Below, piece after piece: positions 1,054-37,623 of a stretch of 37,623 nt of DNA. Made by a program: the position numbers and the translations under genes. Positions within the stretch are counted from its first letter, which is position 1; each line of letters starts with the position of its first letter. The notes under the pieces were generated by a model that saw nothing but the letters and a program-made list of their open reading frames with translations, was not told the DNA's origin and searched no databases. The stretch is taken from the IMG/VR virus record IMGVR_UViG_2645727529_000001, positions 1-37,623 of that record; one strand, written 5' to 3'. The DNA comes from a virus. Its lineage: Duplodnaviria; Heunggongvirae; Uroviricota; Caudoviricetes.

Positions 1054-1241
1054 AAAAAATGCCCTCCAATAGAGAGCATTTTTACTGTATGTATAACCAG
1101 TGTCAATGTATGAAATCCTGCGACCATACATCTCACTGAAGCCATAATGAAGTAGGCTATTCTTTTTGCTATGTGATCATGTAACTTTTGCGGTTAACCT
1201 GTGGCTCATTTTTATTTTAGGCGCAGATATAAAAGCAAAAG

Positions 1242-3948: not shown

Positions 3949-4802
3949 GCACCATCCTGAAATGGGCGGGAAATAAAACTGCCATAATGTCCGAACTGAA
4001 AAAACATCTTCCTGCTGGCCCGCGACTGGTTGAACCTTTCGCGGGTTCCTGTGCTGTGATGATGGAGACGGATTATCCCAGCTATCTGGTTGCGGATATT
4101 AATCCTGATTTAATCAACCTCTATAAAAAGGTTGCCGCTGATTGTGAATCGTTTATATCTCGCGCCAGAGTTTTATTTGAGATCGCAAACAGGGAGGTGG
4201 CTTATTACAACATAAGGCAGGAGTTTAATTACTCAACTGAAATTACTGATTTCATGAAAGCGGTATATTTCCTGTATCTCAATCGTCACGGTTACCGTGG
4301 TTTATGTCGCTATAACAAGAGCGGGCATTTCAACATTCCCTACGGTAATTATAAAAATCCGTATTTCCCTGAAAAAGAAATTCGCGCATTTGCAGAAAAG
4401 GCCCAGCGAGCAACGTTTATCTGCGCCAGCTTTGATGAAACGCTGGCGATGTTGAAGGCGGGGGATGTGGTGTATTGCGATCCGCCGTATGACGGTACGT
4501 TTTCCGGCTATCACACTGACGGCTTCACTGAAGATGACCAGTATCACCTGGCATCTGTTCTTGAACATCGGTCATCAGAAGGACATCCGGTCATTGTTTC
4601 TAACAGTGACACATCCCTGATCCGTTCGCTGTATCGCAATTTTACTCACCACTACATCAAGGCAAAACGCAGCATCGGTGTGGCAGCTGGCGAGGGTAAA
4701 TCAGCAACAGAAATCATCGCTGTTTCCGGGCCGCGCTGCTGGGTAGGATTTGATCCTTCGCGTGGCGTGGATTGTTCCGTCGTGTACGGAGTGCGTGCAT
4801 GA
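3945..4802 (+). CDS. dam: DNA adenine methyltransferase (Dam family)
   Basis: N-terminal LKWAGNK AdoMet motif and DPPY motif ([10 protein letters not shown]); ATG 3945 overlaps the TraR-like stop. Confidence 0.85.
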
Positions 4803-7837: not shown

Positions 7838-8127
7838 TAGTTTGGGCAATGAGTGAAATAAGGCGTAAGGCGTAAGGTGGGGGGGCATTTTGATAAATGA
7901 TCGTCCGCTTTGTGCCAGAAGCGAACGTTTCTTCTGCTATCTTTCGTCAATTAACGAATGGCAGACTAATTTGCAACGGATAATCTGAATTTTGTAAGAT
8001 TATGGGTATTCCTATAATATTTACCAATAATAACCTTACAATGTACACTACCTATTGAATTTTCCATAGTTGGCCTTTGGCTCTACTTACCATCTATGTT
8101 TATGTATTTTATCAAAATGGACTAAAA

Positions 8128-10544: not shown

Positions 10545-11216
10545 ATGGCTTTCAGAGCGGAAGAAGCAGCAGCATCGAATTTCGAAAATGCTTACAGATA
10601 TCTAGTTCCACAAGGTTCAAATCAGGAGATGCGTTCGAAAGTTAGGGCGAAGCTCAAAGAAATTGTTGAAGAATGTGGGCCAGTAGTGGATGGGTATCCA
10701 GCATGGCATCCTTTTTTGCTGGAAAGAGATAAAGCTATTTGGGCGCCTATGACTCCCAATAATACTCCTAGCTTTAAATACCTGGACCACACGGTCTATT
10801 TCAGGAACGGCATTCTTACCTGTCCTTATGGTCATGGGGTTGATGAATTTATAGCTGGTATAAAACGTCTAAAGCACACGGATGCCCATTTCTCTATTGA
10901 GAAGATTGATGACGTTGTGCTTTATAATGACAACGCCGTCCCGTTGTTAATAAAATGCCATTGGCTTATTTCGGAAGATATGGAAGAGGATGGCACCATT
11001 CCAGCAAAAGCAGCAATTGGATTGATGCTTGAAAGCGAGGTTCCTAACTGGCGGCATGCAGTTTATTGTGAAAATTGGGAAGATATGCGCGGGCAGTTGA
11101 TGGGATATCCGCACGGTGCCAGATCATCTCTATTTGTTAATCAGCAGACAGGACAGAAAATGAAAAACTTCTGGAATCAGCTGATTAAGACCGGAATTCT
11201 TGGGGAAGAGCGATAA
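10545..11216 (+). CDS. Hypothetical protein (223 aa), cargo gene between the cos-like site and the portal gene
   Basis: Clean ORF, lower GC than backbone, followed by a strong terminator; no family recognised by eye. Confidence 0.6.
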   Translation: MAFRAEEAAASNFENAYRYLVPQGSNQEMRSKVRAKLKEIVEECGPVVDGYPAWHPFLLERDKAIWAPMTPNNTPSFKYLDHTVYFRNGILTCPYGHGVDEFIAGIKRLKHTDAHFSIEKIDDVVLYNDNAVPLLIKCHWLISEDMEEDGTIPAKAAIGLMLESEVPNWRHAVYCENWEDMRGQLMGYPHGARSSLFVNQQTGQKMKNFWNQLIKTGILGEER

Positions 11217-18825: not shown

Positions 18826-19219
18826 AGCGGTGCCTTATGTCCGCAATAACCCGGACAAACTGCATCTGTTTGTGGATAACGGTTCGCTGGTTGCCAAGGG
18901 GGCCAGCTCCATGTCATGGGAGTACCGTTACACCCTGAACGCGGTGATTGAGGATTTCAGCGGCGACCAGAATCTGCTGATGGCCCCGGTTTTGCTGTGG
19001 CTGCGGGATAACCAGCCCGATGCCATCAATAATCCGGCGTTACGGGAAAAGTTATTCACCTTTGAGGTGGATATTCTGCGCAACGATGTCTGTGATATCA
19101 GCCTTAACCTGCAACTGACGGAGCGTGTGCTGGTCAGCACTGACGGCAGTGTGTCGAGCGTTGAAGCTGTGGCAGAACCCGATGAACCTGAAGAAATGTG
19201 GGCGGTGAAACGTGGCTGA
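18788..19219 (+). CDS. R: Tail completion protein gpR
   Basis: GTG start at 18788 after AGGAG; P2 R-like. Confidence 0.8.
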   Translation: MNKPQSLRHALNKAVPYVRNNPDKLHLFVDNGSLVAKGASSMSWEYRYTLNAVIEDFSGDQNLLMAPVLLWLRDNQPDAINNPALREKLFTFEVDILRNDVCDISLNLQLTERVLVSTDGSVSSVEAVAEPDEPEEMWAVKRG

Positions 19220-19655
19220 ACTGCAGAAGGTGGACGACTGGCTGAGTGCTTTGCTGGCGAATCTGGAGCCAGCCGCAAGAAGCCGCATGATGCGCCAGCT
19301 GGCGCAGGAACTGCGCCGGACACAGCAGCAGAACATCAGGATGCAGCGCAATCCAGATGGCAGCAGTTATGAACCGCGCAGGGCAACAGCACGCAGCAAA
19401 AAGGGGCGCATCAAACGTCAGATGTTTACAAAGCTGCGCACCTCTAAATACCTTCAAACTACCGCCAGCGCCGATTCTGCCAGCGTGCAGTTTGAAGGTA
19501 AGGTGCAGCGCATTGCACGCGTTCACCATTACGGCCTGCGTGATCGCGTCAGTCGTCATAGTTTTAAAGTGAAATATGCGCAACGGCGTCTTCTAGGCGT
19601 TAATAAAGACATAGAAATTTGGGTTCGAAACACACTGATGCACTGGCTTGTTTAG
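19212..19655 (+). CDS. S: Tail completion protein gpS
   Basis: 147 aa, GTG start overlapping the R stop; P2 S-like. Confidence 0.8.
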   Translation: MAELQKVDDWLSALLANLEPAARSRMMRQLAQELRRTQQQNIRMQRNPDGSSYEPRRATARSKKGRIKRQMFTKLRTSKYLQTTASADSASVQFEGKVQRIARVHHYGLRDRVSRHSFKVKYAQRRLLGVNKDIEIWVRNTLMHWLV

Positions 19656-19680: not shown

Positions 19681-21432
19681 CTATTGGTTGAATATAAAGC
19701 TGATAATATTTTCAGGAGTGAGCTCTATGTTTTTTTTATTAAGTTTTTGAATGTACATTTTATATTTCATTTCAACGTTTCGGAAGCCTTGCGCAACAGA
19801 AAGTATTTCTACAGGATGAGATGAAAGCTTTATTAAGGAGTTAATGACTGCATCTAGGTAGATGTGAGCATGTTCAACTAAAACATTTGTTTTTGATGGG
19901 GTTTTTCCAGTGTGAACTATCAAGTTTCTAGTTCTATATATTCTCCTAATTTGCCAGTTGATTCTTTCTGCATGATTTTTAAGTGCCTGATACATAGTAT
20001 CAGTTGAGGAAATTAAATTGCTAATATATTCAAATCTCTCTTTCAATAACGGAAATTGTGATAGTTCTATCTTAAACTGATTGATGCTAGGGGCATGTTC
20101 TTGCGAAGCAACAAGAATTACAAATGATTTGGCTGCATCGCTATCTCCAATTAGTCTTAGAAGTGACATGGTTCGAGGATGATTCCATCGTTGTAAGTCT
20201 TTTATAAGATTCCTTACTAGGTCTTCAATATAATTCAGGTTTAAAAATGGTGTTAATGAATTAACGATATGTTCTATCGTGGATTGTTCTTCTTTTTTTG
20301 ATTCGTCGGGGATGAGTGATTCAATAGCAATCCATAAATTTAAAAGCTGATTTTCTACAGCATTTGTCTGTAGTGCCATTGAATGTAATTGTACACTTCT
20401 TATGAATTTATTGAAAGAATCCTTGCGCATTCTGAAATTATTCATGAATTGTTCGAGTCTTCTGCTTGCGTGTTCCTGAACCAGATCCTTGCAGCGGTGC
20501 ATTGGGTTTATGCTGCTTCTTATATTGATTTTTTCACCATTTTCACTAACTACAATGTTCTCTGCAGACCATGATGCTTCTTGCTTATGATGATAGAGAG
20601 AAAGCAAAGTTGATGCGAGCTTTAAGTTTCTTTCAGCTACCCTTCTAGCCGTGAATGGATCAAGTGCTTTAACATGCTTAACTAAAATAGTTCGTTGTTC
20701 ATGATTATCGAAGAAATCTGTTTCATTAATATTTTCGGGGGTTTCAAGAACAACCTCAATTTCTAATTGTGATAAGCATGGAGTAATATAACTAAAAGAT
20801 TTTTCAGCATTGAAATAAACTGAATATTCTTGTGTCTCTGAGGGGATGTTCTCTAGGAATGTAATAATCTCTTCATTTGAACTGATCTCTCGTTCTCTTT
20901 GGAAGAAATGTTTTTTTAGACTTTCCATCAAATATTCTTGACTTAATCCTTTTGATATTAGATGGGTAATCAACAGTCTTGTAAACTTTCGAATTTTATT
21001 TGGGTTGTATTCTGAAGTTATTGTAGAGCAAAGTTCACTGATGAGTTTGCTTTCATAATTACCAACATTAAGTTGAACTCTCAGTAACTCAAGAGTTATT
21101 TTTAGATTTTTATTTCCTAACTGATTGTTTTGGAGTTGATCTAAAAATGAACCTAAAGGGTTTTTTAGAAGACTGATTGCGATGTCATCATTCTTAATAT
21201 TTTTAGTTAATTCGTCAATGACGTGGGATATATGTGCGGGGCTTATGTTGCCTTTTTCTATATCATCGATTGTTGATATTGCTTCTATACATAAACTTGG
21301 AGTGTTCATTATAGAAGGTTTATATGTACTATGGGTGTAATCAAAGAGAAGTTCCTCCATTAACTCGGTGAAATAAATAAGCGCAGTGCATTGTTCAATA
21401 TGATTCCAGTTGTGTAGTCTTCTAAATTTCAT
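19681..21432 (-). CDS. Large AT-rich cargo protein with C-terminal HEPN-like Rx4H motif; candidate abortive-infection or defence RNase
   Basis: ORF 19681..21552 (TTG start); preferred ATG at 21432 (MKFRRL...) leaves the P_V promoter region free; motif RIYRTRNLIVHTG near the C-terminus; convergent with S and divergent from V at the P2 orf30 position. Confidence 0.6.
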   Translation of the reverse strand: MKFRRLHNWNHIEQCTALIYFTELMEELLFDYTHSTYKPSIMNTPSLCIEAISTIDDIEKGNISPAHISHVIDELTKNIKNDDIAISLLKNPLGSFLDQLQNNQLGNKNLKITLELLRVQLNVGNYESKLISELCSTITSEYNPNKIRKFTRLLITHLISKGLSQEYLMESLKKHFFQREREISSNEEIITFLENIPSETQEYSVYFNAEKSFSYITPCLSQLEIEVVLETPENINETDFFDNHEQRTILVKHVKALDPFTARRVAERNLKLASTLLSLYHHKQEASWSAENIVVSENGEKINIRSSINPMHRCKDLVQEHASRRLEQFMNNFRMRKDSFNKFIRSVQLHSMALQTNAVENQLLNLWIAIESLIPDESKKEEQSTIEHIVNSLTPFLNLNYIEDLVRNLIKDLQRWNHPRTMSLLRLIGDSDAAKSFVILVASQEHAPSINQFKIELSQFPLLKERFEYISNLISSTDTMYQALKNHAERINWQIRRIYRTRNLIVHTGKTPSKTNVLVEHAHIYLDAVINSLIKLSSHPVEILSVAQGFRNVEMKYKMYIQKLNKKNIELTPENIISFIFNQ

Positions 21433-21476
21433 ATTAATACCTTGTTTTGTGAAGCTTGAATTTACCTTTAGCGCAT

Positions 21477-21498
21477 TGTTTGTTGCTTCATACAAACA
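21477..21498. promoter_or_regulatory. Ogr/Delta-type late-promoter site(s) for P_V (two overlapping TGT-N12-ACA dyads)
   Basis: TGT 21477-21479 with ACA 21492-21494, and TGT 21481-21483 with ACA 21496-21498; 43-64 nt upstream of the V start. Confidence 0.55.
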
Positions 21499-21540
21499 TG
21501 GTTTGTTTGTGATCTCAAGTGTTTGATTAAGAATTTGAGA

Positions 21541-22119
21541 ATGAACGTACAACTCACGGAAATCATGCGCCTTATCACCAATCTGATCCGCACAGGGGTA
21601 GTCACCGAAGTGGACCGGGAAAACTGGCTTTGCAGGGTGAAAACGGGCGAGCTTGAAACCAACTGGATCAGCTGGCTGACGCTACGTGCCGGAAATGCCC
21701 GGACATGGTGGCGACCATCGGAAGGTGAGCAGGTGGTGCTGCTGAGTCTGGGAGGCAATCTGGAAACCGCCTTTGCGTTGCCCGCTGTCTATTCGAATCA
21801 GTTCGCGCCACCTTCGACGTCGGCGGACGCCTGCGTGACAGAACATCCTGACGGTGGCTGGTTTGAATACGAACCCGCCACCGGGCGCTGGTATGTCAGG
21901 GGCATCAAATCCATGGTCATTGAGGCTGCCGACAACATCACCCTGAAAACCAGTGAGTTTGTGCTGGAGGCTGACCGCACGCGTATTAACAGCGAAGTAG
22001 TGATCAATGGTGGTGTTACCCAGGGCGGCGGTGCAATGAGTTCTAACGGAATTGTGGTTGATGCACATCAGCATACTGGCGTCCTGAAAGGCGGCGACAC
22101 AACCGGAGGCCCGGTATGA
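21541..22119 (+). CDS. V: Baseplate spike protein gpV
   Basis: ATG 21541; P2 V-like. Confidence 0.85.
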   Translation: MNVQLTEIMRLITNLIRTGVVTEVDRENWLCRVKTGELETNWISWLTLRAGNARTWWRPSEGEQVVLLSLGGNLETAFALPAVYSNQFAPPSTSADACVTEHPDGGWFEYEPATGRWYVRGIKSMVIEAADNITLKTSEFVLEADRTRINSEVVINGGVTQGGGAMSSNGIVVDAHQHTGVLKGGDTTGGPV

Positions 22120-22475
22120 CGCTTTATAGCGGGATGAACAATACCAGCGGCAAAGTCATTACTGATATTGACCATCTGCGCCAGTCGGTGCGGGACATTC
22201 TGCTGACGCCGCAGGGTAGCCGCATTGCCCGTCGGGAATATGGTTCCCTACTGTCGGCACTGATAGATCAGCCACAAAATCCGGCATTACGCCTGCAGGT
22301 CATGTCGGCAGTGTATGTGGCGCTGAGTCGCTGGGAGCCACGGCTGACGCTGGATTCCATCACCATCAACAGCAACTTTGACGGTTCTATGGTGGTGGAG
22401 CTGACCGGGCGGCGGAATAACGGTGTGCCTGTGTCCCTTTCCGTATCAACAGGAGCAGAGAATGGCAGTGATTGA
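22116..22475 (+). CDS. W: Baseplate protein gpW (GPW/gp25 family)
   Basis: 119 aa; synteny and family resemblance. Confidence 0.85.
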   Translation: MTLYSGMNNTSGKVITDIDHLRQSVRDILLTPQGSRIARREYGSLLSALIDQPQNPALRLQVMSAVYVALSRWEPRLTLDSITINSNFDGSMVVELTGRRNNGVPVSLSVSTGAENGSD

Positions 22476-23370
22476 CCTTTCGCAGTTGCCTGCACCGCAG
22501 ATTGTGGATGTGCCGGACTTTGAGACGCTGCTTGCCGAACGCAAGGCAGAATTTGTGGCGCTTCATCCGAAAGATGAGCAGGAAGCCGTGATCCGCACGC
22601 TGGAACTGGAATCTGAACCCGTCACTAAATTGTTGCAGGAGAACGCTTACCGTGAGTTGCTTCTGCGCCAGCGCATTAACGAAGCCGCGCAGGCGGTGAT
22701 GGTGGCTTACGCGATGGGCGGCGATCTTGACCAGCTCGCTGCCAACTACAACGTGACACGCCTGACGGTGACGCCTGCTGATAATGATGCTGTGCCGCCC
22801 GTTGCAGCTGTGATGGAAAGCGATGAAGCGTTACGCCTGCGTGTGCCTGCAGCCTTTGAAGGGCTTTCTGTTGCGGGGCCAACTGCAGCTTATGAATTTC
22901 ATGCCCGAAGCGCCGACGGTCGGGTGGCGGATGCCAGTGCAACCAGCCCGGCACCTGCAGAGGTGGTGCTGACTGTCCTTAGCCGCGAAGGCGATGGAAC
23001 TGCAGAAAAAGACCTGCTGGACGTGGTGGAAAAAGCTCTGAACAGTGAGAACGTCCGCCCGGTGGCTGACCGTCTGACGGTTCGCAGCGCAGAAATCATC
23101 CCGTATCGCGTGGAAGCCACCATTTTTCTCTATCCTGGACCGGAAGCAGAGCCGGTAATGGCAGCGGCAAAAGCCAGCCTGCAGAAGTACATCGCCAGTC
23201 AGACGCGTCTTGGTCGGGATATTCGCCGTAGCGCCATCTTTGCCGCCCTGCATGTTGAGGGTGTGCAGCGTGTGGAGCTGGCTTCTCCTCTGGCGGATGT
23301 GGTCCTGAACAAAACACAGGCGGCATCATGTACGCAGTGGAGCATAACCAACGGAGGAACGGATGAATAG
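22462..23370 (+). CDS. J: Baseplate assembly protein gpJ
   Basis: ATG 22462 with GGAG RBS; P2 J-like. Confidence 0.85.
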   Translation: MAVIDLSQLPAPQIVDVPDFETLLAERKAEFVALHPKDEQEAVIRTLELESEPVTKLLQENAYRELLLRQRINEAAQAVMVAYAMGGDLDQLAANYNVTRLTVTPADNDAVPPVAAVMESDEALRLRVPAAFEGLSVAGPTAAYEFHARSADGRVADASATSPAPAEVVLTVLSREGDGTAEKDLLDVVEKALNSENVRPVADRLTVRSAEIIPYRVEATIFLYPGPEAEPVMAAAKASLQKYIASQTRLGRDIRRSAIFAALHVEGVQRVELASPLADVVLNKTQAASCTQWSITNGGTDE

Positions 23371-23968
23371 TCTGCTGCCACCGGGTTCAACACCACTGGA
23401 GCGCCGACTGGCGCAAACCTGCAGCGGGATTTCTGATCTGCAGGTGCCGCTTCGTGACTTGTGGAATCCGGCAACCTGTCCGGTCAGTTTCCTGCCTTAT
23501 CTCGCCTGGGCGTTCTCTGTGGATCGCTGGGACGAGGGCTGGACAGAAAGCGTCAAGCGCCAGGTGGTGAAGGATGCTTTTTATATTCATCAGCATAAAG
23601 GGACCACCAGTGCCGTGCGGCGGGTGGTGGAGCCGTTCGGCTTTCTGATCCGCATTATTGAGTGGTGGCAGACCGGAGAGGCACCGGGCACGTTTCGCCT
23701 GGATATCGGCGTGCAGGACCAGGGCATCACTGAAGATACCTATCTGGAACTTGAGCGACTGATAAGCGATGCCAAACCATGTAGCCGCCACATGATCGGC
23801 ATGTCCATCAATCTGCAGACCAGCGGCCCGCATTGGGTGGGAGCCGCCAGCTATCTTGGCGAAGAAATCACGATCTATCCGTATATCAACGAAACAATTA
23901 TTTCCGGCGGCACCGCGCATGAAGGCGGGGCGGTCCATGTTATTGACACAATGAGAGTGAATCCATGA
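23363..23968 (+). CDS. I: Tail/baseplate protein gpI
   Basis: 201 aa; synteny. Confidence 0.8.
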   Translation: MNSLLPPGSTPLERRLAQTCSGISDLQVPLRDLWNPATCPVSFLPYLAWAFSVDRWDEGWTESVKRQVVKDAFYIHQHKGTTSAVRRVVEPFGFLIRIIEWWQTGEAPGTFRLDIGVQDQGITEDTYLELERLISDAKPCSRHMIGMSINLQTSGPHWVGAASYLGEEITIYPYINETIISGGTAHEGGAVHVIDTMRVNP

Positions 23969-25473
23969 GCACAAAATTTTATACCCTGCTGACGGATATT
24001 GGCGCGGCGAAACTTGCCAGCGCCGCCGCGCTCGGTGTGCCGCTAAAAATTACCCATATGGCGGTGGGCGATGGTGGCGGAACATTGCCGACGCCGGACG
24101 CAAAGCAGAGTGCACTGGTAAATGAGAAACGTCGGGCTGCGCTGAATATGCTCTATATCGACCCACAGAACAGCAGCCAGATTATTGCTGAACAGGTGAT
24201 CCCTGAAAACGAGGGCGGTTGGTGGATACGTGAAGTGGGCCTGTTTGATGAATCCGGGGCATTGATTGCCGTGGGAAACTGCCCGGAAAGCTATAAGCCG
24301 CAACTGGCTGAAGGTAGCGGACGCACTCAGACCGTGCGCATGGTGCTGATTACCAGCAGCACGGACAATATCACCCTGAAAATCGACCCTGCTGTAGTGC
24401 TGGCAACCCGCAAGTATGTGGATGACAAGGCACTGGAGCTGAAGGTGTACGCGGATGATCAGATGGCAAAACATCTTGCCGCACCGGACCCGCATTCACA
24501 GTATGCACCCAAAGAAAGTCCGACGTTTACCGGGACACCCAAAGCGCCAACGCCAGCAGCAGGGAATAACACCACGCAGATTGCGACCACCGCGTTTGTT
24601 CAGGCGGCTCTGACGGCTCTTATTAATGGTGCGCCAGCCACGCTGGACACGCTGAAAGAAATAGCCGCAGCCATTAACAATGATCCGAAATTCAGTACCA
24701 CCATTAACAATGCACTGGCACTGAAAGCGCCGCTGTCGAGTCCGGCACTCACCGGAACGCCAACCGCACCTACTGCGGCACAGTCGGTCAACAATACACA
24801 GATTGCCACCACGGCATTTGTGAAATCGGCGATTGCGGCAATGGTGGGTTCTGCACCTGCGGCACTGGATACACTCAACGAACTGGCGGCGGCACTGGGG
24901 AATGACCCGAACTTTGCCACGACAATGCTTAATGCACTGGCAGGTAAACAACCGCTGGACAATACGCTGACTAATTTGAGTGGAAAGGATGTAGCTGGTC
25001 TTCTCACATACCTTGGTTTGGGAGAAGGCTCTGCATTACCTGTTGGTGTCCCTGTTCCGTGGCCTTCAGCCACTCCGCCAACAGGCTGGCTGAAATGCAA
25101 TGGTGCGGCTTTTTCTGCTGAAGAATACCCGGAACTGGCAAAAGTTTACCCGACAAATAAATTGCCTGATTTACGTGGTGAGTTTATTCGCGGCTGGGAT
25201 GACGGAAGAGGAATTGATACTAACCGTAGCTTGCTTTCATCACAGGGCGATGCCATTCGAAATATAATTGGTGCATTAGTGGATGTCAGGTTTAATACCT
25301 ATCCTTCTGATTCTGGTGCTTTTACAACCAGCGTCATCGGAGATGCTTCATCTGATTCAACTAAAGGTGGTTATGCAAAGCGAGTAACATTTGATGCTTC
25401 CAGAGTTGTTCCAACTGCAAACGAAAACCGTCCGCGTAATATTGCATTTAACTATATCGTGAGGGCAGCCTGA
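23965..25473 (+). CDS. H: Tail fibre protein gpH (current orientation of the variable C-terminus)
   Basis: 502 aa; conserved P2 H N-terminus (MSTKFYTLLTDIG...); C-terminal 150 aa lie inside the invertible segment. Confidence 0.85.
   Translation: MSTKFYTLLTDIGAAKLASAAALGVPLKITHMAVGDGGGTLPTPDAKQSALVNEKRRAALNMLYIDPQNSSQIIAEQVIPENEGGWWIREVGLFDESGALIAVGNCPESYKPQLAEGSGRTQTVRMVLITSSTDNITLKIDPAVVLATRKYVDDKALELKVYADDQMAKHLAAPDPHSQYAPKESPTFTGTPKAPTPAAGNNTTQIATTAFVQAALTALINGAPATLDTLKEIAAAINNDPKFSTTINNALALKAPLSSPALTGTPTAPTAAQSVNNTQIATTAFVKSAIAAMVGSAPAALDTLNELAAALGNDPNFATTMLNALAGKQPLDNTLTNLSGKDVAGLLTYLGLGEGSALPVGVPVPWPSATPPTGWLKCNGAAFSAEEYPELAKVYPTNKLPDLRGEFIRGWDDGRGIDTNRSLLSSQGDAIRNIIGALVDVRFNTYPSDSGAFTTSVIGDASSDSTKGGYAKRVTFDASRVVPTANENRPRNIAFNYIVRAA
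24517..24960 (+). repeat. Tandem duplication of about 70 codons inside the tail fibre gene
   Basis: SPTFTGTPKAPT...NNTTQIATTAFV...DTLKEIAAAINNDPKF... repeated as SPALTGTPTAPT...NNTQIATTAFV...DTLNELAAALGNDPNF... Confidence 0.5.
25001..25026. repeat. hix/gix-like 26-bp inversion crossover site (left)
   Basis: TTCTCACATACCTTGGTTTGGGAGAA, similar to the Hin/Gin sites as I recall them; inner half TTGGTTTGGGAGAA is inverted at 26832-26845. Confidence 0.65.
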
Positions 25474-26075
25474 TGCATAAAGCAATATTAAATAGTGAGC
25501 TTATTGCAACAAAGGCAGGGGATGTTACCGTTTATAACTACGATGGTGAAACACGGGAATATATTTCCACGTCAACTGAATATCTTGCTGTTGGTGTCGG
25601 TATTCCGGCATGTTCCTGTCTTGATGCACCTGGCATACATAAGGTTGGTTATGCAATCTGTCGTTCTGTGAATTTAAATTCATGGGAATATGTGCCAGAT
25701 CATCGCGGTGAAATCGTCTATAGCACCGAAACAGGAGAATCGAAAGAAATCACAGCTCCGGGTGATTATCCTGAAAATACAACCACTATCGCCCCGTTAA
25801 CGCCATACGATGAATGGAATGGTGAGAAATGGGTGACAGATACCGAGGCACAGCACGGCGCAGCAGTAGATGCAGCAGAAGCACAGCGCCCGTTGCTGAT
25901 TGATACTGCAATGGCCTCCATCAGTCTGATTCAACTGAAATTACAGGCCGGACGGAAGCTGACGCAGGCAGAAACAATCCGCCTTAACGCTGTGCTGGAT
26001 TACATTGACGCGGTGACGGCAACAGATACCAGCACAGCGCCGGATGTCATCTGGCCTGAACTGCCGGAGGCGTAG
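25473..26075 (+). CDS. G: Tail fibre assembly chaperone gpG (expressed orientation)
   Basis: 200 aa; follows H with ATGA overlap; G-like conserved C-terminus. Confidence 0.8.
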   Translation: MHKAILNSELIATKAGDVTVYNYDGETREYISTSTEYLAVGVGIPACSCLDAPGIHKVGYAICRSVNLNSWEYVPDHRGEIVYSTETGESKEITAPGDYPENTTTIAPLTPYDEWNGEKWVTDTEAQHGAAVDAAEAQRPLLIDTAMASISLIQLKLQAGRKLTQAETIRLNAVLDYIDAVTATDTSTAPDVIWPELPEA

Positions 26076-26508
26076 GCCATTCAATATCTGGCGCACCGGA
26101 AGTATCGATCAGCTCCAGTGCGTCCAGATAATCCAGCCACAAATTATATTGTGCCAGTTCCTCACCTTTCAGACGACCGATAGCTGCTTTACCAGGCCAT
26201 TGCTTACCGTTCATGTATTCGTTGGCATGGTCAATTCTCGACTTTTTCTCTGAGTCAGCCGCAGCAAGTTGTTCTTTATGCGTAGGTGACGGAAGATCTA
26301 CCCAGCAAGGCAACCCATCATCACCAATGCCACGCATTTTACCCTCAGGAGCGTTTCCCATGAAAACCAGTGCATCTTCAGCATTTATATTGATGCCGTC
26401 TGACGGCCATGTGCCAGCAGTTAAATAATCATATTTCAGTGCCACAAGATAAAAAGCATTTTCCGTCGGGCTGAATACATAGTCGACCATTAATATCCCA
26501 CTCCCCAT
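26047..26508 (-). CDS. Alternative tail fibre assembly chaperone (G'), inverted cassette
   Basis: 153 aa; C-terminus (...DALELIDTSGAPDIEWP) parallels G (...DAVTATDTSTAPDVIWP); opposite strand inside the invertible segment. Confidence 0.7.
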   Translation of the reverse strand: MGSGILMVDYVFSPTENAFYLVALKYDYLTAGTWPSDGININAEDALVFMGNAPEGKMRGIGDDGLPCWVDLPSPTHKEQLAAADSEKKSRIDHANEYMNGKQWPGKAAIGRLKGEELAQYNLWLDYLDALELIDTSGAPDIEWPTPPAVQAR

Positions 26509-26846
26509 ACTGCCACTGTTGAATTAGATTTCGTGTATGCGCAAGCGGCTTTGAATTTGACCCGGTCAACAATCGCTGCGCTAACAAAAGGGGCTCCATT
26601 AGTCGCGTAGATCACAGAATTGACCAGCGAAGGATTGATGGAAAGGCAAGCATTAGGAAAGGCAACCGGCCATGAGTCATCAACAACGACCATATTACCG
26701 TCGGTAGATTGCGGCACTGATAGCGTCTTCCACTGAAGCAATGCTATTCGTTGTACTCCACCAATTAATACTGGAATAGTGATGTTACCTGCACTGCTGG
26801 CTAATGCTGTCGCAGCAGGCATTTTCGCTGCTTCTCCCAAACCAAC
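26490..26846 (-). CDS. Alternative tail fibre C-terminal cassette (Hv'), silent in this orientation
   Basis: Minus-strand ORF whose VGLGE codons coincide with the right hix-like site, mirroring LGLGE of H at the left site; would fuse to the H constant part after inversion. Confidence 0.6.
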   Translation of the reverse strand, partial: VGLGEAAKMPAATALASSAGNITIPVLIGGVQRIALLQWKTLSVPQSTDGNMVVVDDSWPVAFPNACLSINPSLVNSVIYATNGAPFVSAAIVDRVKFKAACAYTKSNSTVAVWGVGY

Positions 26847-26857
26847 GTTTATGAAAA
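26832..26857. repeat. hix/gix-like 26-bp inversion crossover site (right)
   Basis: TTCTCCCAAACCAACGTTTATGAAAA; inner 14 bp are the exact inverted repeat of 25013-25026. Confidence 0.65.
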
Positions 26858-26906
26858 TGCAGAGATAACGGCTAACTGGCATCATCTCCGGTTTTTATTC
26901 AGGGGG

Positions 26907-27479
26907 ATGATCATGCTTATTGGCTATGTACGCGTGTCAACAAATGACCAGAACACCGATTTGCAACGCAATGCACTGAACTGTGCGGGATGTGAGCGGA
27001 TTTTTGAGGATAAAATCAGTGGCACCAAGTCCGACAGACCGGGGCTGAAAAAGCTGCTCAGGACACTATCGGCAGGAGACACGCTGGTTGTCTGGAAGCT
27101 GGACAGACTGGGGCGCAGTATGCGGCATCTTGTTACGCTGATAGAAGAGCTGCGCCAGCGTGGCGTGAATTTCCGAAGCCTGACTGACAGTATTGATACC
27201 AGCACCCCAATGGGCCGTTTCTTTTTTCATGTCATGGGTGCCCTGGCTGAAATGGAACGCGAACTGATAGTTGAACGTACCAGGGCGGGGCTGGCTGCAG
27301 CTCGTGCTAAAGGCAGAGTAGGTGGACGCCGTCCTAAGTTGACCAGCGAACAGTGGGCACAGATTGGGCGTTTACTCGAGGCCGGAGAATCAAGACAGCG
27401 TATTGCACTGATTTTTGATGTAGGCGTTTCTACCATTTATCGAAAATTTCCGGCAAATAAGAACAATAAATCTCCCTGA
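26907..27479 (+). CDS. Serine DNA invertase (Hin/Gin/Pin/Cin family)
   Basis: N-terminal IGYVRVSTNDQNTDLQ resolvase catalytic motif and C-terminal HTH; AGGGGG RBS favours the ATG at 26913. Confidence 0.9.
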   Translation: MIMLIGYVRVSTNDQNTDLQRNALNCAGCERIFEDKISGTKSDRPGLKKLLRTLSAGDTLVVWKLDRLGRSMRHLVTLIEELRQRGVNFRSLTDSIDTSTPMGRFFFHVMGALAEMERELIVERTRAGLAAARAKGRVGGRRPKLTSEQWAQIGRLLEAGESRQRIALIFDVGVSTIYRKFPANKNNKSP

Positions 27480-27527
27480 ATCAGCTTTATTTTGATTATC
27501 CCTGAAAGCAGACAAATACCGTCATTT

Positions 27528-27545
27528 TGTGTGAATAACGGTACA
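27528..27545. promoter_or_regulatory. Ogr/Delta-type late-promoter site for P_F (TGT-N12-ACA)
   Basis: TGTgtgaataacggtACA, 77 nt upstream of the FI start. Confidence 0.55.
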
Positions 27546-27621
27546 ACTGCGTTTAGCTGTTTGTCAGGCACAATCACTTCAACATAGGGCGAAGCCTAAT
27601 CCAATCAGGAGGTTCGCCACT

Positions 27622-28794
27622 ATGGCTCAGGATTACCACCACGGGGTGCGCGTTGTTGAAGTCAACGAAGGCACCCGATCCATTACCACGGTGAGCACCG
27701 CCATCGTGGGTATGGTCTGCACGGGCGATGATGCCGATGCAAAAATGTTTCCTCTTAATAAACCCGTGCTGATCACTGATGTGCTGACTGCCAGCGGTAA
27801 AGCGGGTGAGTCAGGCACGCTGGCTCGTTCGCTGGATGCCATCGCTGACCAGGCAAAACCCGTGACCGTTGTTGTGCGTGTGCCGCAGGGTGAAACGGAA
27901 GAAGAAACCACGACCAATATCATCGGCGCAGTGACCGCTGAAGGTAAAAAAACAGGCATGAAAGCCCTGTTATCTGCCCAGTCACAGCTCGGCGTTAAAC
28001 CGCGCATTCTCGGCGTGCCAGGTCACGACACGAAGGCGGTAGCTACTGAGTTGCTGAGCGTGGCGCAAAGCCTGCGTGGATTTGCTTACCTGTCAGCGTA
28101 TGGTTGCAAGACGGTGCAGGAAGCAATCACTTACCGTGAAAACTTCAGCCAGCGCGAAGGGATGCTGATCTGGCCCGACTTTACTGGCTGGGACACGGTG
28201 CTGAATGCCGAAGCAACGGCATATGCCACCGCCCGTGCGCTTGGTCTGCGTGCCAAAATTGATGAGCAGACCGGGTGGCACAAAAGCCTGTCCAACGTGG
28301 GCGTGAACGGTGTCACCGGAATTTCTGCTGATGTGTTCTGGGATCTGCAGGACCCGGCAACCGATGCGGGACTGCTTAACCAGAACGACGTCACCACGCT
28401 TGTGCGCAAGGATGGTTTCCGCTTCTGGGGTTCCCGCTGTCTGAGCGATGATCCGCTTTTTGCCTTCGAAAACTACACCCGCACAGCGCAGGTACTGATG
28501 GACACAATGGCAGAAGCACATATGTGGGCGGTGGACAAACCGCTGAACCCGTCGCTGGCCCGCGACATTATCGAAGGTATCCGCGCCAAAATGCGCAGCC
28601 TGGTCAGTCAGGGCTATCTCATTGGTGGTGATTGCTGGCTGGACGAGTCAGTGAACGACAAAGACACGCTGAAAGCCGGAAAACTCACCATCGACTATGA
28701 CTACACGCCAGTGCCGCCACTTGAAAATCTGATGCTGCGCCAGCGCATCACCGATCAGTACCTGGTGAATTTCGCCAGCCAGGTCAGCGCGTAA
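27622..28794 (+). CDS. FI: Tail sheath protein gpFI
   Basis: 390 aa; P2 FI-like; GGAGG RBS. Confidence 0.9.
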
Positions 28795-32880: not shown

Positions 32881-33362
32881 TGATGGTGCTGGGATTGTAC
32901 GTGTTTATGCTGCGCACTGTGCCGTATCAGGAACTGCAGTATCAACGCAGCTGGCGACATGCGGCAAACAGCCGGGTCAACCGACGCCCGTCCACGCAGT
33001 TTCTGGGACCGGACAACGACATGCTGACGCTTTCTGGTGTTCTTATGCCAGAGATAACGGGCGGCAGGCTGTCGTTGCTGGCTCTGGAGCAGATGGCAGA
33101 ACAGGGAAAAGCATGGCCCCTGATTGAAGGCAGCGGCACGATTTACGGCATGTATGTGATTGAGGGACTGAATCAGACTAAAACGGAGTTTTTCCGCGAT
33201 GGTATGCCGCGCCGGATTGAGTTCACCCTGTCGCTCAAACGGGTGGATGAATCCCTGTCCGATATGTTCGGTGATCTCAGTGCGCAGCTGAATAATTTGC
33301 AGGATACGGCAACGTCTGCCTTAAGCGATATCAGTAAAACGGTGGGAGGGCTGCTGTCGTGA
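32877..33362 (+). CDS. U: Tail protein gpU
   Basis: 161 aa; synteny. Confidence 0.85.
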   Translation: MMMVLGLYVFMLRTVPYQELQYQRSWRHAANSRVNRRPSTQFLGPDNDMLTLSGVLMPEITGGRLSLLALEQMAEQGKAWPLIEGSGTIYGMYVIEGLNQTKTEFFRDGMPRRIEFTLSLKRVDESLSDMFGDLSAQLNNLQDTATSALSDISKTVGGLLS

Positions 33363-34459
33363 ATTTCAGCTCTGAACTGCTTAACAAAGGCAACAAAACT
33401 CCCGCATTCAGCATCAGTATTGAAGGCAAGGATATCACCACTGTGCTGGACAACCGCCTGATGGGGCTTACGCTGACGGATAACCGGGGCTTTGAAGCGG
33501 ACCAGCTTGATCTGGAGCTGGACGACGCCGACGGAAAAATCGTGCTGCCGCGCCGTGGTGCGGTCATCACGCTGGCGCTGGGCTGGAAGGGGCAGCCGCT
33601 TTTCCCGAAAGGGGCATTCACAGTGGACGAGATTGAACACACTGGCGCACCGGATCGCCTGACTATCCGGGCGCGAAGTGCTGATTTTAGGGAAACGCTG
33701 AATACCCGCCGTGAAAAATCGTGGCACAAGACCACTGTCGGGGAAGTGGTGAAGGAAATAGCCGCGCGTCACAAGCTGAAGATGGCACTGGGTAAAGACC
33801 TGTCGGATAAGCCCGTGGAGCATATAGACCAGACTAATGAGAGTGACGGCAGTTTTCTGATGCGGCTGGCGCGCCAGTACGGTGCCATCGCGTCGGTGAA
33901 AAATGGCAATCTGTTATTCATCCGGCAGGGACAGGGCAAAAGCGCCACTGGTAAACCACTGCCGGTGATCACTATCACACGCAAGGACGGCGACAGTCAC
34001 CGCTTTACCCTGGCAGATCGCGGAGCCTACACGGGGGTAATTGCCAGCTGGTTGCATACCCGCGAACCCGCGAAGAAAGAAAGCACTACGGTGAAGCGTA
34101 AGCGCAGGACTAAGAAGCAGAAGAAAGAGCCGGAAGCGAAGCAGGGCGATTACCTGGTGGGGACGGATGAAAACGTGCTGGTACTTAATCGCACTTATGC
34201 CAACCGGAGCAACGCCGAACGAGCGGCAAAAATGCAGTGGGAACGCCTGCAACGCGGCGTTGCGTCATTCTCGCTACAACTGGCGGAAGGGCGGGCAGAT
34301 CTCTACACGGAAATGCCTGTGAAGGTCAGTGGTTTTAAACAGCCGATAGATGATGCGGAATGGACCATTACGACTCTGACACATACCGTCAGCCCGGATA
34401 ACGGTTTTACGACCAGTCTGGAGCTTGAAGTGAAGATTGATGATTTCGAAATGGAATGA
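33359..34459 (+). CDS. D: Tail protein gpD
   Basis: 366 aa; P2 D-like; synteny. Confidence 0.9.
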   Translation: MNFSSELLNKGNKTPAFSISIEGKDITTVLDNRLMGLTLTDNRGFEADQLDLELDDADGKIVLPRRGAVITLALGWKGQPLFPKGAFTVDEIEHTGAPDRLTIRARSADFRETLNTRREKSWHKTTVGEVVKEIAARHKLKMALGKDLSDKPVEHIDQTNESDGSFLMRLARQYGAIASVKNGNLLFIRQGQGKSATGKPLPVITITRKDGDSHRFTLADRGAYTGVIASWLHTREPAKKESTTVKRKRRTKKQKKEPEAKQGDYLVGTDENVLVLNRTYANRSNAERAAKMQWERLQRGVASFSLQLAEGRADLYTEMPVKVSGFKQPIDDAEWTITTLTHTVSPDNGFTTSLELEVKIDDFEME

Positions 34460-34549
34460 TTCTTCGCAATGGAGAACTTTTAAGTTTTCAAAATGGAATA
34501 ATGCGGTATCATTATTGTGAATTTAGCAAAAATGGGGAGAACTCGAAAA

Positions 34550-34768
34550 ATGATGATTTGCCCACTGTGTGGAAGTGCCGCCCATACTCGCAGCAGTTTT
34601 CAGGTATCTTCATTGACCAAAGAGCGTTACAACCAGTGCCAGAACATTAACTGCAGCCATACTTTTGTTACCCATGAAACTTTTGTTCGTTCGATTGCAA
34701 CGCCAAAAGAGTCAAATCCGGTTCAGCCGCATCCAATGAAATCAGGACAGGTAGCGCTCTCTCTTTGA
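34550..34768 (+). CDS. ogr: Late transcription activator Ogr (zinc finger)
   Basis: 72 aa from ATG 34550; CPLC...CQNINC zinc-binding motif; last prophage gene before the att repeat. Confidence 0.85.
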   Translation: MMICPLCGSAAHTRSSFQVSSLTKERYNQCQNINCSHTFVTHETFVRSIATPKESNPVQPHPMKSGQVALSL

Positions 34769-34790
34769 CGCTGCCGCCATTTTGTCGCCA
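34769..34790. repeat. att core copy (attR side)
   Basis: cgctgccgccattttgtcgcca, directly after the ogr stop; matches 19-40. Confidence 0.6.
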
Positions 34791-34854
34791 TCGTTAAAAA
34801 ACAGTGCTTCTAACATCATGATCTTAAACAGCTTAAATTTCAGGCAACAAAAAA

Positions 34855-34897
34855 CCCATCAACCTTGAACCGAAATGGCGGGGTTGATGGGCTCCAC
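34855..34897 (-). terminator. Intrinsic terminator of host ybjL
   Basis: 10-bp stem cccatcaacc/ggttgatggg followed on the minus strand by UUUUUU; about 110 nt downstream of the ybjL stop. Confidence 0.6.
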
Positions 34898-35003
34898 AAA
34901 ATGGGGACATCAAAGAAAAGCAGTGGCATTAATTAAGACTGATGCCCTGCGGAAAAGTTCTGCGGTTGTGCAAAAAAATTTCATTTTCAGGGCAACTTCA
35001 GTT

Positions 35004-36689
35004 TTATCCTAATCCTGGCCATACCATGACGATGATTGTCCCTGCCAGCGTCAGCAGGACGTTGGCGATTGCGTAGGTGCCCGCATAGCCCAGCGCAGGG
35101 ATGTTACTGCGAGCTGTATCACTGATGATCTCCATTGCCGGCGCGCAGGTGCGTGCGCCCATCATTGCGCCGAACAACAGTGCGCGGTTCATTCGCAATA
35201 CATAAGCACCGAACAAGAAACAGATAACCACGGGCACAAGACTGACAATTAATCCGGCAATCAACATCTGACCGCCAATCGCGCCCAGGCCGTTATTAAT
35301 ACCGCTACCGGCGCTCAGACCAACGCCTGCCATAAACACCATCAAGCCGAACTCTTTCACCATGCTTAATGCACCTTGCGGAATGTAACCGAAGGTCGGG
35401 TGGTTAGCACGCATAAAGCCCAGCATAATTCCGGCGAATAACAACCCGGCAGCGTTCCCCATGCCGAAACTGAATGTGCTGAACTGGAAGGTGATCATCC
35501 CGATCATCAGCCCAATAACAAAGAAGGCGCAAAATGCCAGCAGGTCAGTGACCTGGCTGTGAATCGAGATAAAGCCGATGCGATCGGCGATGGTTTTTAC
35601 GCGACGGGCATCACCGCTGACTTGTAAAACGTCACCTTTGTTAAGCACGACGTTGTCATCTATCGGCATCTCAATCTGGCTACGAATGACGCGGTTAAGG
35701 AAGCAACCGTGATCGGTCAACTTCAGTTGTGCGAGACGTTTACCTACAGCGTTATGGTTTTTAACGACCACTTCTTCAGTGACGATACGCATGTCGAGAA
35801 GGTCACGATCGAAAACTTCTTTACCGTTACGGAAGCTGGGATCGAGTCGGGCATGGGCGTCGGGATAGCCTACCAACGCTATTTCATCGCCCATTTGTAG
35901 CACGGCATCACCGTCTGGATTTGCCAGAATCCCGTTACGTCGAATACGTTCAATGTAGCAGCCGGTTTGTCGATAAATACCCAGTTCACGCAGATTTTTG
36001 CCGTCGGTCCAGGCCACCAGCTCCGGGCCGACGCGATAGGCGCGGATCACCGGTAAATAAACCTTACGGTTGGCATCAGTGTCCAGGCCACGTTCGCGGG
36101 CGATTTGCTGGGCGCTGGTCTGTAAGTCCTGATGCTGCAATTTCGGCAAGTAACGCGCACCAACAATCAAACTCACCAGACCGATTAAATAGGTTAAGGC
36201 ATACCCGAGGCTCAGATTATCCAGTGCCAGTGAGAGCTGCCTGCTTTCCATGCCGGAATGACGCAGTGTATCGCCAGCACCGACCAGAACCGGTGTCGAC
36301 GTCATAGAGCCTGCTAACATACCGGCCGTCAGGCCAATATCCCAGCCAAACAGCTTACCTAACCCTAAGGCGATCACCAGCGCACTGCCAACCATCACCA
36401 GTGCTAACATTAGGTAATTTTTCCCATCGCGAAAAAAAATGGAAAAAAAGTTCGGTCCGGCTTCGACCCCGACGCAGAAAATAAACAGCATAAAGCCAAG
36501 ATTAAGCGCATCGGTGTTAATGCTGAAATGTTGTTGGCCTAATAACAGCGATACGACTAAAACGCCAATGGAATTACCCAGTTGGATCGAACCAAGTCGT
36601 AACTTTCCGAGACATAGCCCAAGCGCGAGGACCACAAATAATAACAGAATGTAATTCCCATTTAACAATTCGGCGACGTTTATATTCAC
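35004..36689 (-). CDS. ybjL: Putative transport protein YbjL (AAE-family transporter)
   Basis: 561-aa multi-TM protein recognised as E. coli YbjL; neighbours ybjM and grxA as in E. coli. Confidence 0.85.
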
Positions 36690-36958
36690 GGAGGCTAACT
36701 TCTTGTTTACTAGTAAGCTGTTGAAAGAAATGGTAATTTACGATAATGTTTTTTACCAGAATTCAGGGCGCAGATTCATTCAGCGCACCTAAACGATAGT
36801 AAAGTAACAATATATTTTACTAGTGTAATCACATTAGGTATCAACGGCTATATGAATTGCGTTGGCCTATATTAGCATGGAATGCGAAGCGGCTTTATCT
36901 TACTGAACGCCACACTGGCGAAAAATGTGTTCGATAGACGCAGTGTCAGGAGGAACGA

Positions 36959-37336
36959 GTGAAACATAAACAACGTTGGGCGGGGGCAATCTGCTGTTTT
37001 GTCCTCTTCATTGTGGTGTGCCTTTTTCTGGCGACGCACATGAAAGGCGCTTTTCGGGCTGCCGGGCATCCTGAAATCGGCTTGCTATTTTTCATTCTTC
37101 CTGGAGCAGTGGCCAGCTTCTTTTCACAGCGTAGAGAAGTCCTGAAACCTCTGTTTGGCGCAATGCTGGCGGCACCCTGTTCGATGCTCATTATGCGGCT
37201 GTTTTTTTCACCGACGCGCTCATTCTGGCAAGAGCTGGCATGGTTACTAAGCGCGGTGTTCTGGTGTGCGCTGGGGGCACTGTGTTTCTTATTTATCAGT
37301 AGTTTGTTTAAACCACAGCACAGAAAAAATCAGTAA
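36959..37336 (+). CDS. ybjM: Inner membrane protein YbjM
   Basis: 125-aa hydrophobic protein; conserved position between ybjL and grxA. Confidence 0.75.
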   Translation: MKHKQRWAGAICCFVLFIVVCLFLATHMKGAFRAAGHPEIGLLFFILPGAVASFFSQRREVLKPLFGAMLAAPCSMLIMRLFFSPTRSFWQELAWLLSAVFWCALGALCFLFISSLFKPQHRKNQ

Positions 37337-37356
37337 AGCCCTCAACGCGAGGGCTT
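37336..37356. terminator. Bidirectional hairpin between convergent ybjM and grxA
   Basis: aagccctc / gagggctt 8-bp stem with a 5-nt loop. Confidence 0.55.
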
Positions 37357-37365
37357 GTCAGACGA

Positions 37366-37623
37366 TCAGGCGTCCAGATTTTCTTTCACCCATGCAGCAA
37401 AATCGGTATAGCCGCCGATATGTTGCTGATCGACAAAAATCTGCGGCACGGTTTCTACGGGTTTACCTGCCTTTTGTTGTAGATCTTCTTTAGTGATCCC
37501 TTCCGCACGAATATCTACATACTGATACTGAAAATCATCGCGTTCATTGCTCAATTTCTCAGCCAGATCTTTTGCACGCACACAGTAAGGGCAACCCGAA
37601 CGACCAAAAATAACGGTTTGCAT
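37366..37623 (-). CDS. grxA: Glutaredoxin 1
   Basis: 85 aa with CPYC active site; recognised as E. coli GrxA. Confidence 0.9.
   Translation of the reverse strand: MQTVIFGRSGCPYCVRAKDLAEKLSNERDDFQYQYVDIRAEGITKEDLQQKAGKPVETVPQIFVDQQHIGGYTDFAAWVKENLDA

Follow-up and report, generated by a model that had tools for sequence, protein, structure and literature searches.

Organization of the tail-fiber locus

We analyzed a 37,623-nt stretch of DNA (hereafter the window; positions 1 to 37,623 of IMG/VR virus record IMGVR_UViG_2645727529_000001, Caudoviricetes), apparently a complete P2/186-type prophage of Escherichia coli, and focused on the part of its tail module where the tail fiber gene H runs into a segment bounded by short inverted repeats, with a DNA invertase gene just beyond it. 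An initial annotation of the sequence had read this locus as an invertible tail-fiber segment lying between two inverted 26-bp sites at 25001-25026 and 26832-26857, about 1.8 kb apart. Both sites are present at exactly these positions, and the segment between their crossover points (25014-26844) measures 1,831 bp. Its G+C content is 47%, compared with 55%–57% in the neighboring tail genes.

As assembled, H (23965-25473, plus strand) encodes a tail fiber of 502 residues. Its constant part (23965-25012) lies outside the segment and begins with a Pfam Phage_tail_fib domain (E = 1.4e-64), while its variable part, Hv (25027-25473), lies inside, contains a Collar domain at residues 361-408, and matches the tail collar fiber family phrog_523 (E = 3e-73). 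The H stop codon overlaps the ATG of the next gene, G (25473-26075, plus strand, 200 residues), in the sequence TGATG; G encodes a TfaE-like tail fiber assembly chaperone for Hv (Pfam Caudo_TAP, E = 4e-30; phrog_105). Convergent with G, and overlapping its 3′ end by 29 bp, is G′ (26047-26490, minus strand, 147 residues), an alternative tail fiber assembly chaperone (Caudo_TAP, E = 7e-29; phrog_188, E = 3e-57) whose 444-nt coding sequence is likewise annotated in relatives. The remainder of the segment (26490-26831, minus strand) is occupied by Hv′, a silent alternative C-terminal cassette for H that provides 113 residues after the peptide ...GLGE and has no N-terminus of its own. The gene content on the two strands, as judged from open reading frames (ORFs), Pfam, and PHROG, is thus what the initial annotation had described, with the H C-terminus and G on one and Hv′ and G′ on the other.

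The ORF called for Hv′ is 131 residues long, and its first 13 residues (MMPVSRYLCIFIN) are read-through from outside the segment, an artifact of ORF calling rather than a real N-terminus; a 131-residue "hypothetical protein" beside the invertase is better annotated as a silent fiber cassette than as a stand-alone gene. Hv′ scores 24.1 bits against Pfam Gp53-like_C, below the cutoff of 24.9, and shows weak matches to the C-termini of tail fiber PHROGs. The two fiber tips are unrelated, with Collar and phrog_523 on the Hv side and the weak Gp53-like_C match and other fiber families on the Hv′ side, and these different families make it likely that the tips differ in receptor specificity. A search of NCBIfam gave no specific family for the fiber or chaperone proteins, and matches for the invertase were sub-threshold only.

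The reading frames on either side of the segment are arranged so that the cassettes can be exchanged. H reads ...LLTYLGLGE-GSALP through the left site, and at the right site the ORF on the minus strand reads ...VGLGE-AAKMP, so that both frames pass the sites at the same peptide (LGLGE versus VGLGE), as the initial annotation had pointed out in expecting their fusion after inversion. When 25014-26844 was inverted in silico, the junction sequences were unchanged across the 15 bp of identity between the sites, and H continued in frame into Hv′ to give an intact product of 467 residues (H′). The end of H′ overlaps the start codon of G′ in the sequence TAATG, in the same way as H overlaps G. With H and H′ each having an overlapping chaperone start, both states therefore encode a complete fiber and a translationally coupled chaperone. 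A constant N-terminal part outside the segment, two C-terminal cassettes with their own Caudo_TAP chaperones, and in-frame joining are together the hallmarks of the fiber switches of Mu (G), P1 (C), and e14 (P).

The crossover sites are of the pix type

The inverted-repeat arms at 25001-25027 and 26831-26857 (27 nt, 85% complementary, with 1,803 nt between them) are the longest found within 23-29 kb of the window. They contain a perfect stretch of 15 bp (25013-25027 against 26831-26845), comprising a 2-bp core, a 12-bp inner half-site, and one extra base; the perfect inner repeat recorded by the initial annotation is present, but at 15 rather than 14 bp. The left site (25001-25026) reads TTCTCACATACC-TT-GGTTTGGGAGAA, with its core dinucleotide at 25013-25014, and the right site (26832-26857) reads TTCTCCCAAACC-AA-CGTTTATGAAAA, with its core at 26844-26845. 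Two 26-bp sites in inverted orientation, each with imperfect 12-bp half-sites around a 2-bp core, are what the Hin/Gin/Cin/Pin (Din) invertases act upon, and the same 12-2-12 layout is found in Mu gix and P1 cix. The top-strand cores, TT on the left and AA on the right, are identical in inverted orientation, which is precisely what religation requires.

The sites had been called hix/gix-like, and while they are indeed 12-2-12 invertase sites, they belong to the pix type of e14, a cryptic prophage of E. coli K-12. The right site is identical at all 26 positions to the e14 pix site beside pinE, and the left site is identical to e14 pixL in its inner half and core, with 3 differences in the outer half. 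A non-palindromic perfect inverted repeat of at least 15 bp appeared in about 1.5% of shuffles of the 6-kb region (in this control on the longest perfect inverted repeat, even lengths are confounded by short palindromes, and the odd-length classes are the informative ones); a chance origin of the site pair is excluded more firmly because the sites match known recombination sites. The 14-mer formed by the core and inner half-site (TTGGTTTGGGAGAA) occurs twice in the window, at just these two sites and on opposite strands, and the sole other match at up to 3 mismatches, at 8363, corresponds to a chance-level frequency. We considered the match at 8363 as a third crossover site of a multi-state shufflon, as present at one locus of enteropathogenic E. 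coli (EPEC), and rejected it on the grounds that it carries 3 mismatches, falls inside an unrelated gene, and is no more frequent than expected by chance.

A Pin-family invertase with an enhancer homologue in its 5′ end

The gene placed just outside the segment by the initial annotation as a serine invertase (26913-27479, plus strand, 188 residues) is a serine DNA invertase of the Pin/Gin/Cin/Hin family by several measures. It contains the Pfam domains Resolvase (E = 2e-53) and HTH_7 (E = 6e-16) and matches phrog_125 (DNA invertase); the Gin structure 3uj3 in the PDB aligns across residues 1-183, essentially its full length (E = 1e-92), and the Hin DNA-binding domain 1hcr matches its C-terminal helix-turn-helix (E = 4e-9). 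It has the organization of the Hin/Gin/Cin/Pin (Din) enzymes, that is, of a small serine recombinase (about 190 residues) with an N-terminal catalytic domain that bears the nucleophilic serine and a C-terminal helix-turn-helix. Pin, Gin, and Cin share with it R7, S9, D64, R65, and R68, and H106 and M114 are likewise conserved. Its identity is highest to PinE of e14 (85%), followed by Cin of P1 (77%) and Gin of Mu (74%). The start codon is most likely at 26913 (MLIGYVRVS...), the position used in all annotated relatives, rather than at 26907.

Inversion systems of this family use a cis-acting enhancer with two Fis sites, placed in the 5′ part of the invertase gene, and depend on host Fis and on supercoiled DNA. 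A homologue of this recombinational (Fis-binding) enhancer is present early in the gene described here (26931-27002), at a distance of 86-157 bp from the right crossover point. It aligns without gaps to nucleotides 19-90 of P1 cin, a stretch annotated in the P1 record as "enhancer of Cin-mediated C-segment inversion", and the first 148 nt of the invertase gene as a whole align gap-free to pinE, gin, and cin; conserved blocks within the enhancer homologue are GTGTCAACAAATGAC and GTGCGGGATGTGAGC. Because this stretch is conserved coding sequence, homology alone is no proof of enhancer function. Changes at H106 or M114 of Pin-family invertases give Fis-independent mutants. The crystallized Gin carries V114, whereas the invertase described here has the wild-type H106 and M114, which suggests a normal dependence on Fis. 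A weak terminator-like hairpin between the right site and the gene (26874-26893) is within chance expectation, and we make no claim for it.

Both orientations occur in near-identical sister prophages

To survey the orientation of the segment, we searched 5,426 complete E. coli genomes with positions 24700-27200 as the query, counting matches at 80% query coverage or more. The arrangement seen in the window was recovered from 11 genomes, and a mirror search with the in-silico flipped query likewise recovered 11; several further genomes matched positions 302-2149 of the query alone, which is exactly the segment. A single orientation throughout would have counted against the initial annotation, but near-identical sisters display both, at 11 genomes each, and include exact inversions. 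It is for these sister prophages (93%–98.5% identical) that the existence of both orientations is established.

The segment of E. coli 4314 is 99.7% identical and flipped relative to its flanks; the 467-residue H′ is annotated there as full length, and an orphaned piece of Hv is left next to the invertase gene. The isolates GCM74-1-1 and GCM39-10-2-9-3-1, both with genomes of 4,696,062 bp, have flanks that are 100% identical (3,018 and 3,015 bp) on either side of a 1,833-bp homologous segment that is itself 100% identical and inverted, with 15-bp overlaps at both ends. E. coli 503440 (NZ_CP025881.1) carries two copies of the sister prophage region, at 2481466-2486966 and 2445475-2450975 (about 36 kb apart), whose flanks are 100% identical and whose segments are in opposite states, with the 467-residue fusion annotated; the pair looks like a tandem double lysogen holding both positions of the switch. 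Further same-strain pairs, identified by coordinates and near-identical genome sizes, are SW071611 versus SW071619/SW07163 and 1504D004 versus 1604D011.

In GCM39-10-2-9-3-1, the flipped H′ (4760-5659 of the extracted locus) has been labeled a pseudogene ("missing C-terminus") by the annotation pipeline, although it is the exact inversion of an intact sister. The label is an artifact of the switch state and shows how automated annotation may wrongly call an H′ fusion a pseudogene.

These comparisons bear directly on the sites present in the window. Its left site is identical in sequence to that of E. coli 503440 (and of Escherichia phage 500465-1), and the two 503440 prophage copies differ by inversion exactly there; its right site has the same sequence as that of GCM74-1-1, an isolate with a flipped sister. 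Each of the two site sequences has accordingly undergone recombination, in prophages whose invertases, where flipped, are 98.9%–99.4% identical to the one in the window. Because exact inversions occur in sisters with matching sites and invertases about 99% identical, the switch is active in this prophage lineage, and all of the components that it needs are intact in the window. The 11:11 division of orientations and the same-strain flips show that the switch is active in nature.

Two orientations could also be produced by RecA recombination between the repeats, or be mistaken for real through assembly error, rather than arise by site-specific inversion, and we find this scarcely credible. Homologous inversion between inverted repeats is possible in principle, and assemblers can mis-orient repeat-bounded segments, but the 15 bp of shared identity is far below efficient RecA substrates, and a repeat of that length cannot confuse long-read or paired-end assemblers. 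Moreover, in four independent comparisons the breakpoints fall exactly within canonical 26-bp invertase sites, a dedicated invertase and an enhancer homologue lie alongside, and the equal 11:11 frequencies fit a fast reversible switch.

A probable fiber switch with two tips

Taken as a whole, the feature is very probably a standard Pin/Gin-type site-specific inversion switch, one that gives a P2-family E. coli prophage two tail-fiber tips. Invertase dimers would bind both 26-bp sites and, together with host Fis bound to the enhancer in the 5′ part of the invertase gene, assemble an invertasome. The 2-bp cores (25013-14 and 26844-45) would be cut in a staggered fashion, and rotation followed by religation would leave the 1,831-bp segment reversed. 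In the present orientation, the 349-residue constant part of H would lead into Hv (tail-collar, e14 StfE-like), followed by its chaperone G, and the flipped orientation would join the same constant part, still in frame, to Hv′ with its gp53-like C-terminus and place G′ after it. A lysogen population would in this way release particles of two receptor specificities, a form of host-range bet-hedging, and host-range predictions for the prophage must consider two receptor-binding tips. The likeness to a host-range switch of the Mu G-segment kind, embedded in a P2-type tail module, that the initial annotation had drawn is supported by the presence of two C-termini with their own Tfa chaperones.

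Several observations weigh against this assignment. The domain matches of Hv′ are all sub-threshold, and its receptor-binding role is proposed because of its position and its dedicated chaperone. Synonymous-site conservation within the enhancer homologue is slightly higher in 5 of 6 pairs, at about 20 codons each, which is not significant. A simple scan between the right site and the start codon found no sigma-70-like promoter for the invertase, and, since one assembled sequence presents one orientation, the switch is presumed from its relatives to be active in the source lysogen. The missing promoter and the single orientation (the latter unavoidable with one sequence), together with the 3 positions at which the outer half of the left site departs from e14 pixL, would also suit a frozen relic, in which the parts look intact but inversion has stopped through an unexpressed invertase or a disabling change in a site. 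We regard such a relic as very improbable: no ORF is truncated and each is as long as its counterpart in relatives, the catalytic residues are intact, and the identical left site (in 503440) and right site (in GCM74-1-1) have recombined alongside invertases about 99% identical. Other Pin-family invertases of the host could, in addition, act in trans (PMC12529663; Kutsukake et al. 2006, as cited in PMC4272514).

Relationship to e14 and a possible role in host protection

The Pin/Gin-type fiber-switch mechanism has been known since the 1980s, and close relatives already contain the module itself, in annotated and published form; the value of the present analysis lies in annotation and interpretation, and current understanding is unchanged. 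The closest relative of the switch is the P-segment/PinE system of e14. The two share the same layout, with J-like and I-like genes, a fiber constant part, a site, two convergent cassettes whose tfa genes overlap by 29 bp, a second site, and the invertase, and the Hv/G cassette is 90%–94% identical to e14 stfE/tfaE (93.6% between the 5′ part of Hv and stfE, and 90% at the DNA level between G and tfaE). The 5′ part of Hv′/G′, in contrast, has no DNA match to e14 stfP/tfaP, Hv′ itself matches nothing in e14 at the DNA level, and the segment is 1,831 bp long as opposed to the 1,797 bp reported for e14 (PMC12529663). Whereas e14 is a defective remnant with pseudogenized jayE and stfE and a short fiber constant part, both the prophage and H appear complete here, and the switch is in essence the e14 P-segment module in intact form, carried by a prophage of the P2 family.

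Work on e14 raises a different view of what the module is selected for. Kirigo et al. describe a PinQ-driven inversion of the 1,797-bp e14 segment that creates a fusion, StfE2, which blocks adsorption of phage T2 (PMC12529663). By analogy, the main selected function could be protection of the host, with inversion exposing an StfE-type C-terminus that blocks the receptors of other phages, and with the invertase able to flip e14 in trans. The 90%–94% identity of Hv/G to stfE/tfaE and the identity of the right site to the e14 site make cross-action and a similar protein product plausible. Set against this, the module resides in what appears to be a complete prophage, with genes for an integrase (1-1131, minus strand), a 186-type CI repressor, gpA, portal, terminase, capsid, and tail through D (33359-34459); H has the full N-terminal fiber domain, so that a function in the virion is the straightforward reading; and H belongs to a late operon that should be silent in a stable lysogen. 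Protection as the main function consequently seems to us quite improbable, although the host-protection and host-range roles are not mutually exclusive. A cross-talk network, in which the prophage invertase flips the e14 P-segment, the Pin enzymes of e14 and Qin flip the prophage, and an StfE-type tip masks receptors against T-even phages, is a speculative idea to which we attach a low probability; if true, carriage of the prophage would add a switchable superinfection exclusion on top of phage host-range variation.

Comparison with other invertible fiber loci

Among catalogued phages, the nearest match is Escherichia phage 500465-1 (Peduoviridae, Wadgaonvirus; NC_049342), which is 97.7% identical over 23900-27700, contains the same genes, and has a "DNA invertase" annotated. 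Together with the prophages of E. coli 503440, 2011C-3911, and 4314, it shows 97.7%–98.6% DNA identity across the fiber-segment-invertase region with the same gene lengths; this group diverges from the window by a few per cent and shows a single-base difference in the right site's outer half (TTTAAG versus TTTATG), and the backbone of the window is nearer to Klebsiella phages such as KP12 than to the 500465-1 group.

The same architecture is found in phage Cartapus (Peduoviridae, Elveevirus), Klebsiella phage KP12, and others. Cartapus and the window are 96%–97% identical up to precisely 25027 and again from 26823 onward; in the interval just 185 bp are shared, located at the overlapping 3′ ends of the tfa genes and on the opposite strand. 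Identity that breaks at the sites in this manner indicates that almost the whole cassette pair has been exchanged between conserved sites, and the conserved sites thus also bound the exchange of whole cassette pairs between P2-family phages. In KP12, identity to the window's Hv ends at 25202, and an additional 80-residue "hypothetical" ORF (1676-1918 of the extracted locus) lies between a shortened H (422 residues) and the TfaE-like gene; the Hv cassette of KP12 may be disrupted or rearranged.

The logic of the locus is also that of the Mu G segment with Gin and the P1 C segment with Cin, namely a constant N-terminus of S, alternative Sv and Sv′ parts, chaperones U and U′, 26-bp gix or cix sites, and a Fis enhancer within the invertase gene. 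The 5′ end of the invertase gene abuts the right site in Mu, as it does here, whereas cin of P1 occupies the opposite side and has cixL at its 3′ end. The Mu (about 3 kb) and P1 (4.2 kb) segments are larger than the one described here and belong to different phage families and tail modules, and the half-sites differ from those of gix and cix, with the core being TC in gix and TT here. A stretch of the H constant part (24509-24959) has 72% DNA identity to the constant part of the P1 tail fiber gene S, which fits the mosaic sharing of fiber segments between unrelated phages that has long been known. Salmonella Hin and its H segment employ the same enzyme family and invertasome mechanism, but what Hin inverts is a promoter, and its gene is part of the inverted segment, whereas here a coding cassette is exchanged and the invertase is outside.

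Judging from published descriptions, Fels-2/Fin of Salmonella and the P2-like prophages of EPEC E2348/69 are comparable in having a Pin-type invertase adjoining an invertible tail-fiber segment. Applying deep sequencing and polymerase chain reaction to clonal cultures, Goldberg et al. demonstrated that invertible loci in two EPEC E2348/69 P2-like prophages adopt both, or all, of their states; one of the inversions spans about 1,800 bp (PMC4272514). At one of the EPEC loci, three sites allow four states, compared with two sites in the window. Zaworski et al. documented inversion of the Fels-2 tail fiber gene beside the pin homologue fin by genome comparison (PMC7953296), and a 2024 preprint reports that the P2 Z/fun hotspot often encodes a DNA invertase, with inversion of adjacent genes (10.1101/2024.10.15.618418).

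Prophage context and neighboring loci

The surroundings of the switch are those of a P2-like (Peduoviridae) phage, with tail genes in the order V W J I H G / FI FII E T U D and Pfam matches to Baseplate_J, Tail_P2_I, Phage_tail_fib, sheath, GPA, portal, and GPD. Directly upstream of H are J (22423-23370; Baseplate_J) and I (23363-23968; Tail_P2_I), and downstream of the invertase the next late operon begins with FI, the tail sheath gene (27622-28794, plus strand; Phage_sheath_1, Phage_sheath_1C, and Gp18_domIII_N). Phage P2 (NC_001895) has the same tail order but fixed H and G genes and no invertase; its reference record lists H, G, the V-operon terminator, fun(Z), the pF activator site, and FI. 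Since fun(Z) stands between G and FI in that record, the second cassette and the invertase fill the fun(Z) slot, in agreement with the initial annotation's placement of the module at the P2 Z/fun locus.

The downstream boundary of this variable slot is marked by a TGT-N12-ACA motif upstream of FI (27528-27545, plus strand), at a place equivalent to that of an activator-binding site in the P2 record. We take TGT-N12-ACA to be the binding motif of Ogr/Delta-type late activators, and the 27528-27545 copy is likely the late-activator site of the F-operon promoter. Other copies are found at 14073 and 14131 (upstream of the P/O divergent pair) and at 21477/21481 (upstream of V); the window contains 10 in total versus 9.2 expected by chance, and it is only the placement that is suggestive. 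Alignment of the spacer between the invertase and FI with the P2 pF region was uninformative. Matching genomes carry an annotated ogr/Delta-like gene at the right end.

In a comparison covering 1-25000 and 34400-37623, the host genes ybjL, ybjM, and grxA, which follow the prophage, are 99.9% identical to those of E. coli, while the best matches of the backbone in phage collections are Klebsiella phages (KP12 and the Kp48xx series, 96% over 74%). This combination of an E. coli flank and Klebsiella-phage matches implies that near-identical P2-type backbones circulate across both genera.

Elsewhere in the prophage, genes of low G+C content occur at two further places. Between gpA and portal, at the position of the P2 old/tin hotspot, is a gene for a 647-residue KAP-family P-loop nucleoside triphosphatase (8077-10020, plus strand; 36.7% G+C) that matches the PADLOC candidate defense family PDC-S49 (E = 5e-161). 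Its neighbor (10545-11216, plus strand) is a 223-residue ORF with no match in Pfam, PHROG, or PADLOC. A 623-residue ORF with a G+C content of 33% (19681-21552, minus strand) lies on the opposite strand between S (19212-19655) and V (starting at 21523); neither Pfam nor PHROG gave a match and PADLOC gave only a weak one, to ApeA (E = 2e-12), and the ORF is probably a moron or defense cargo gene in another variable slot.

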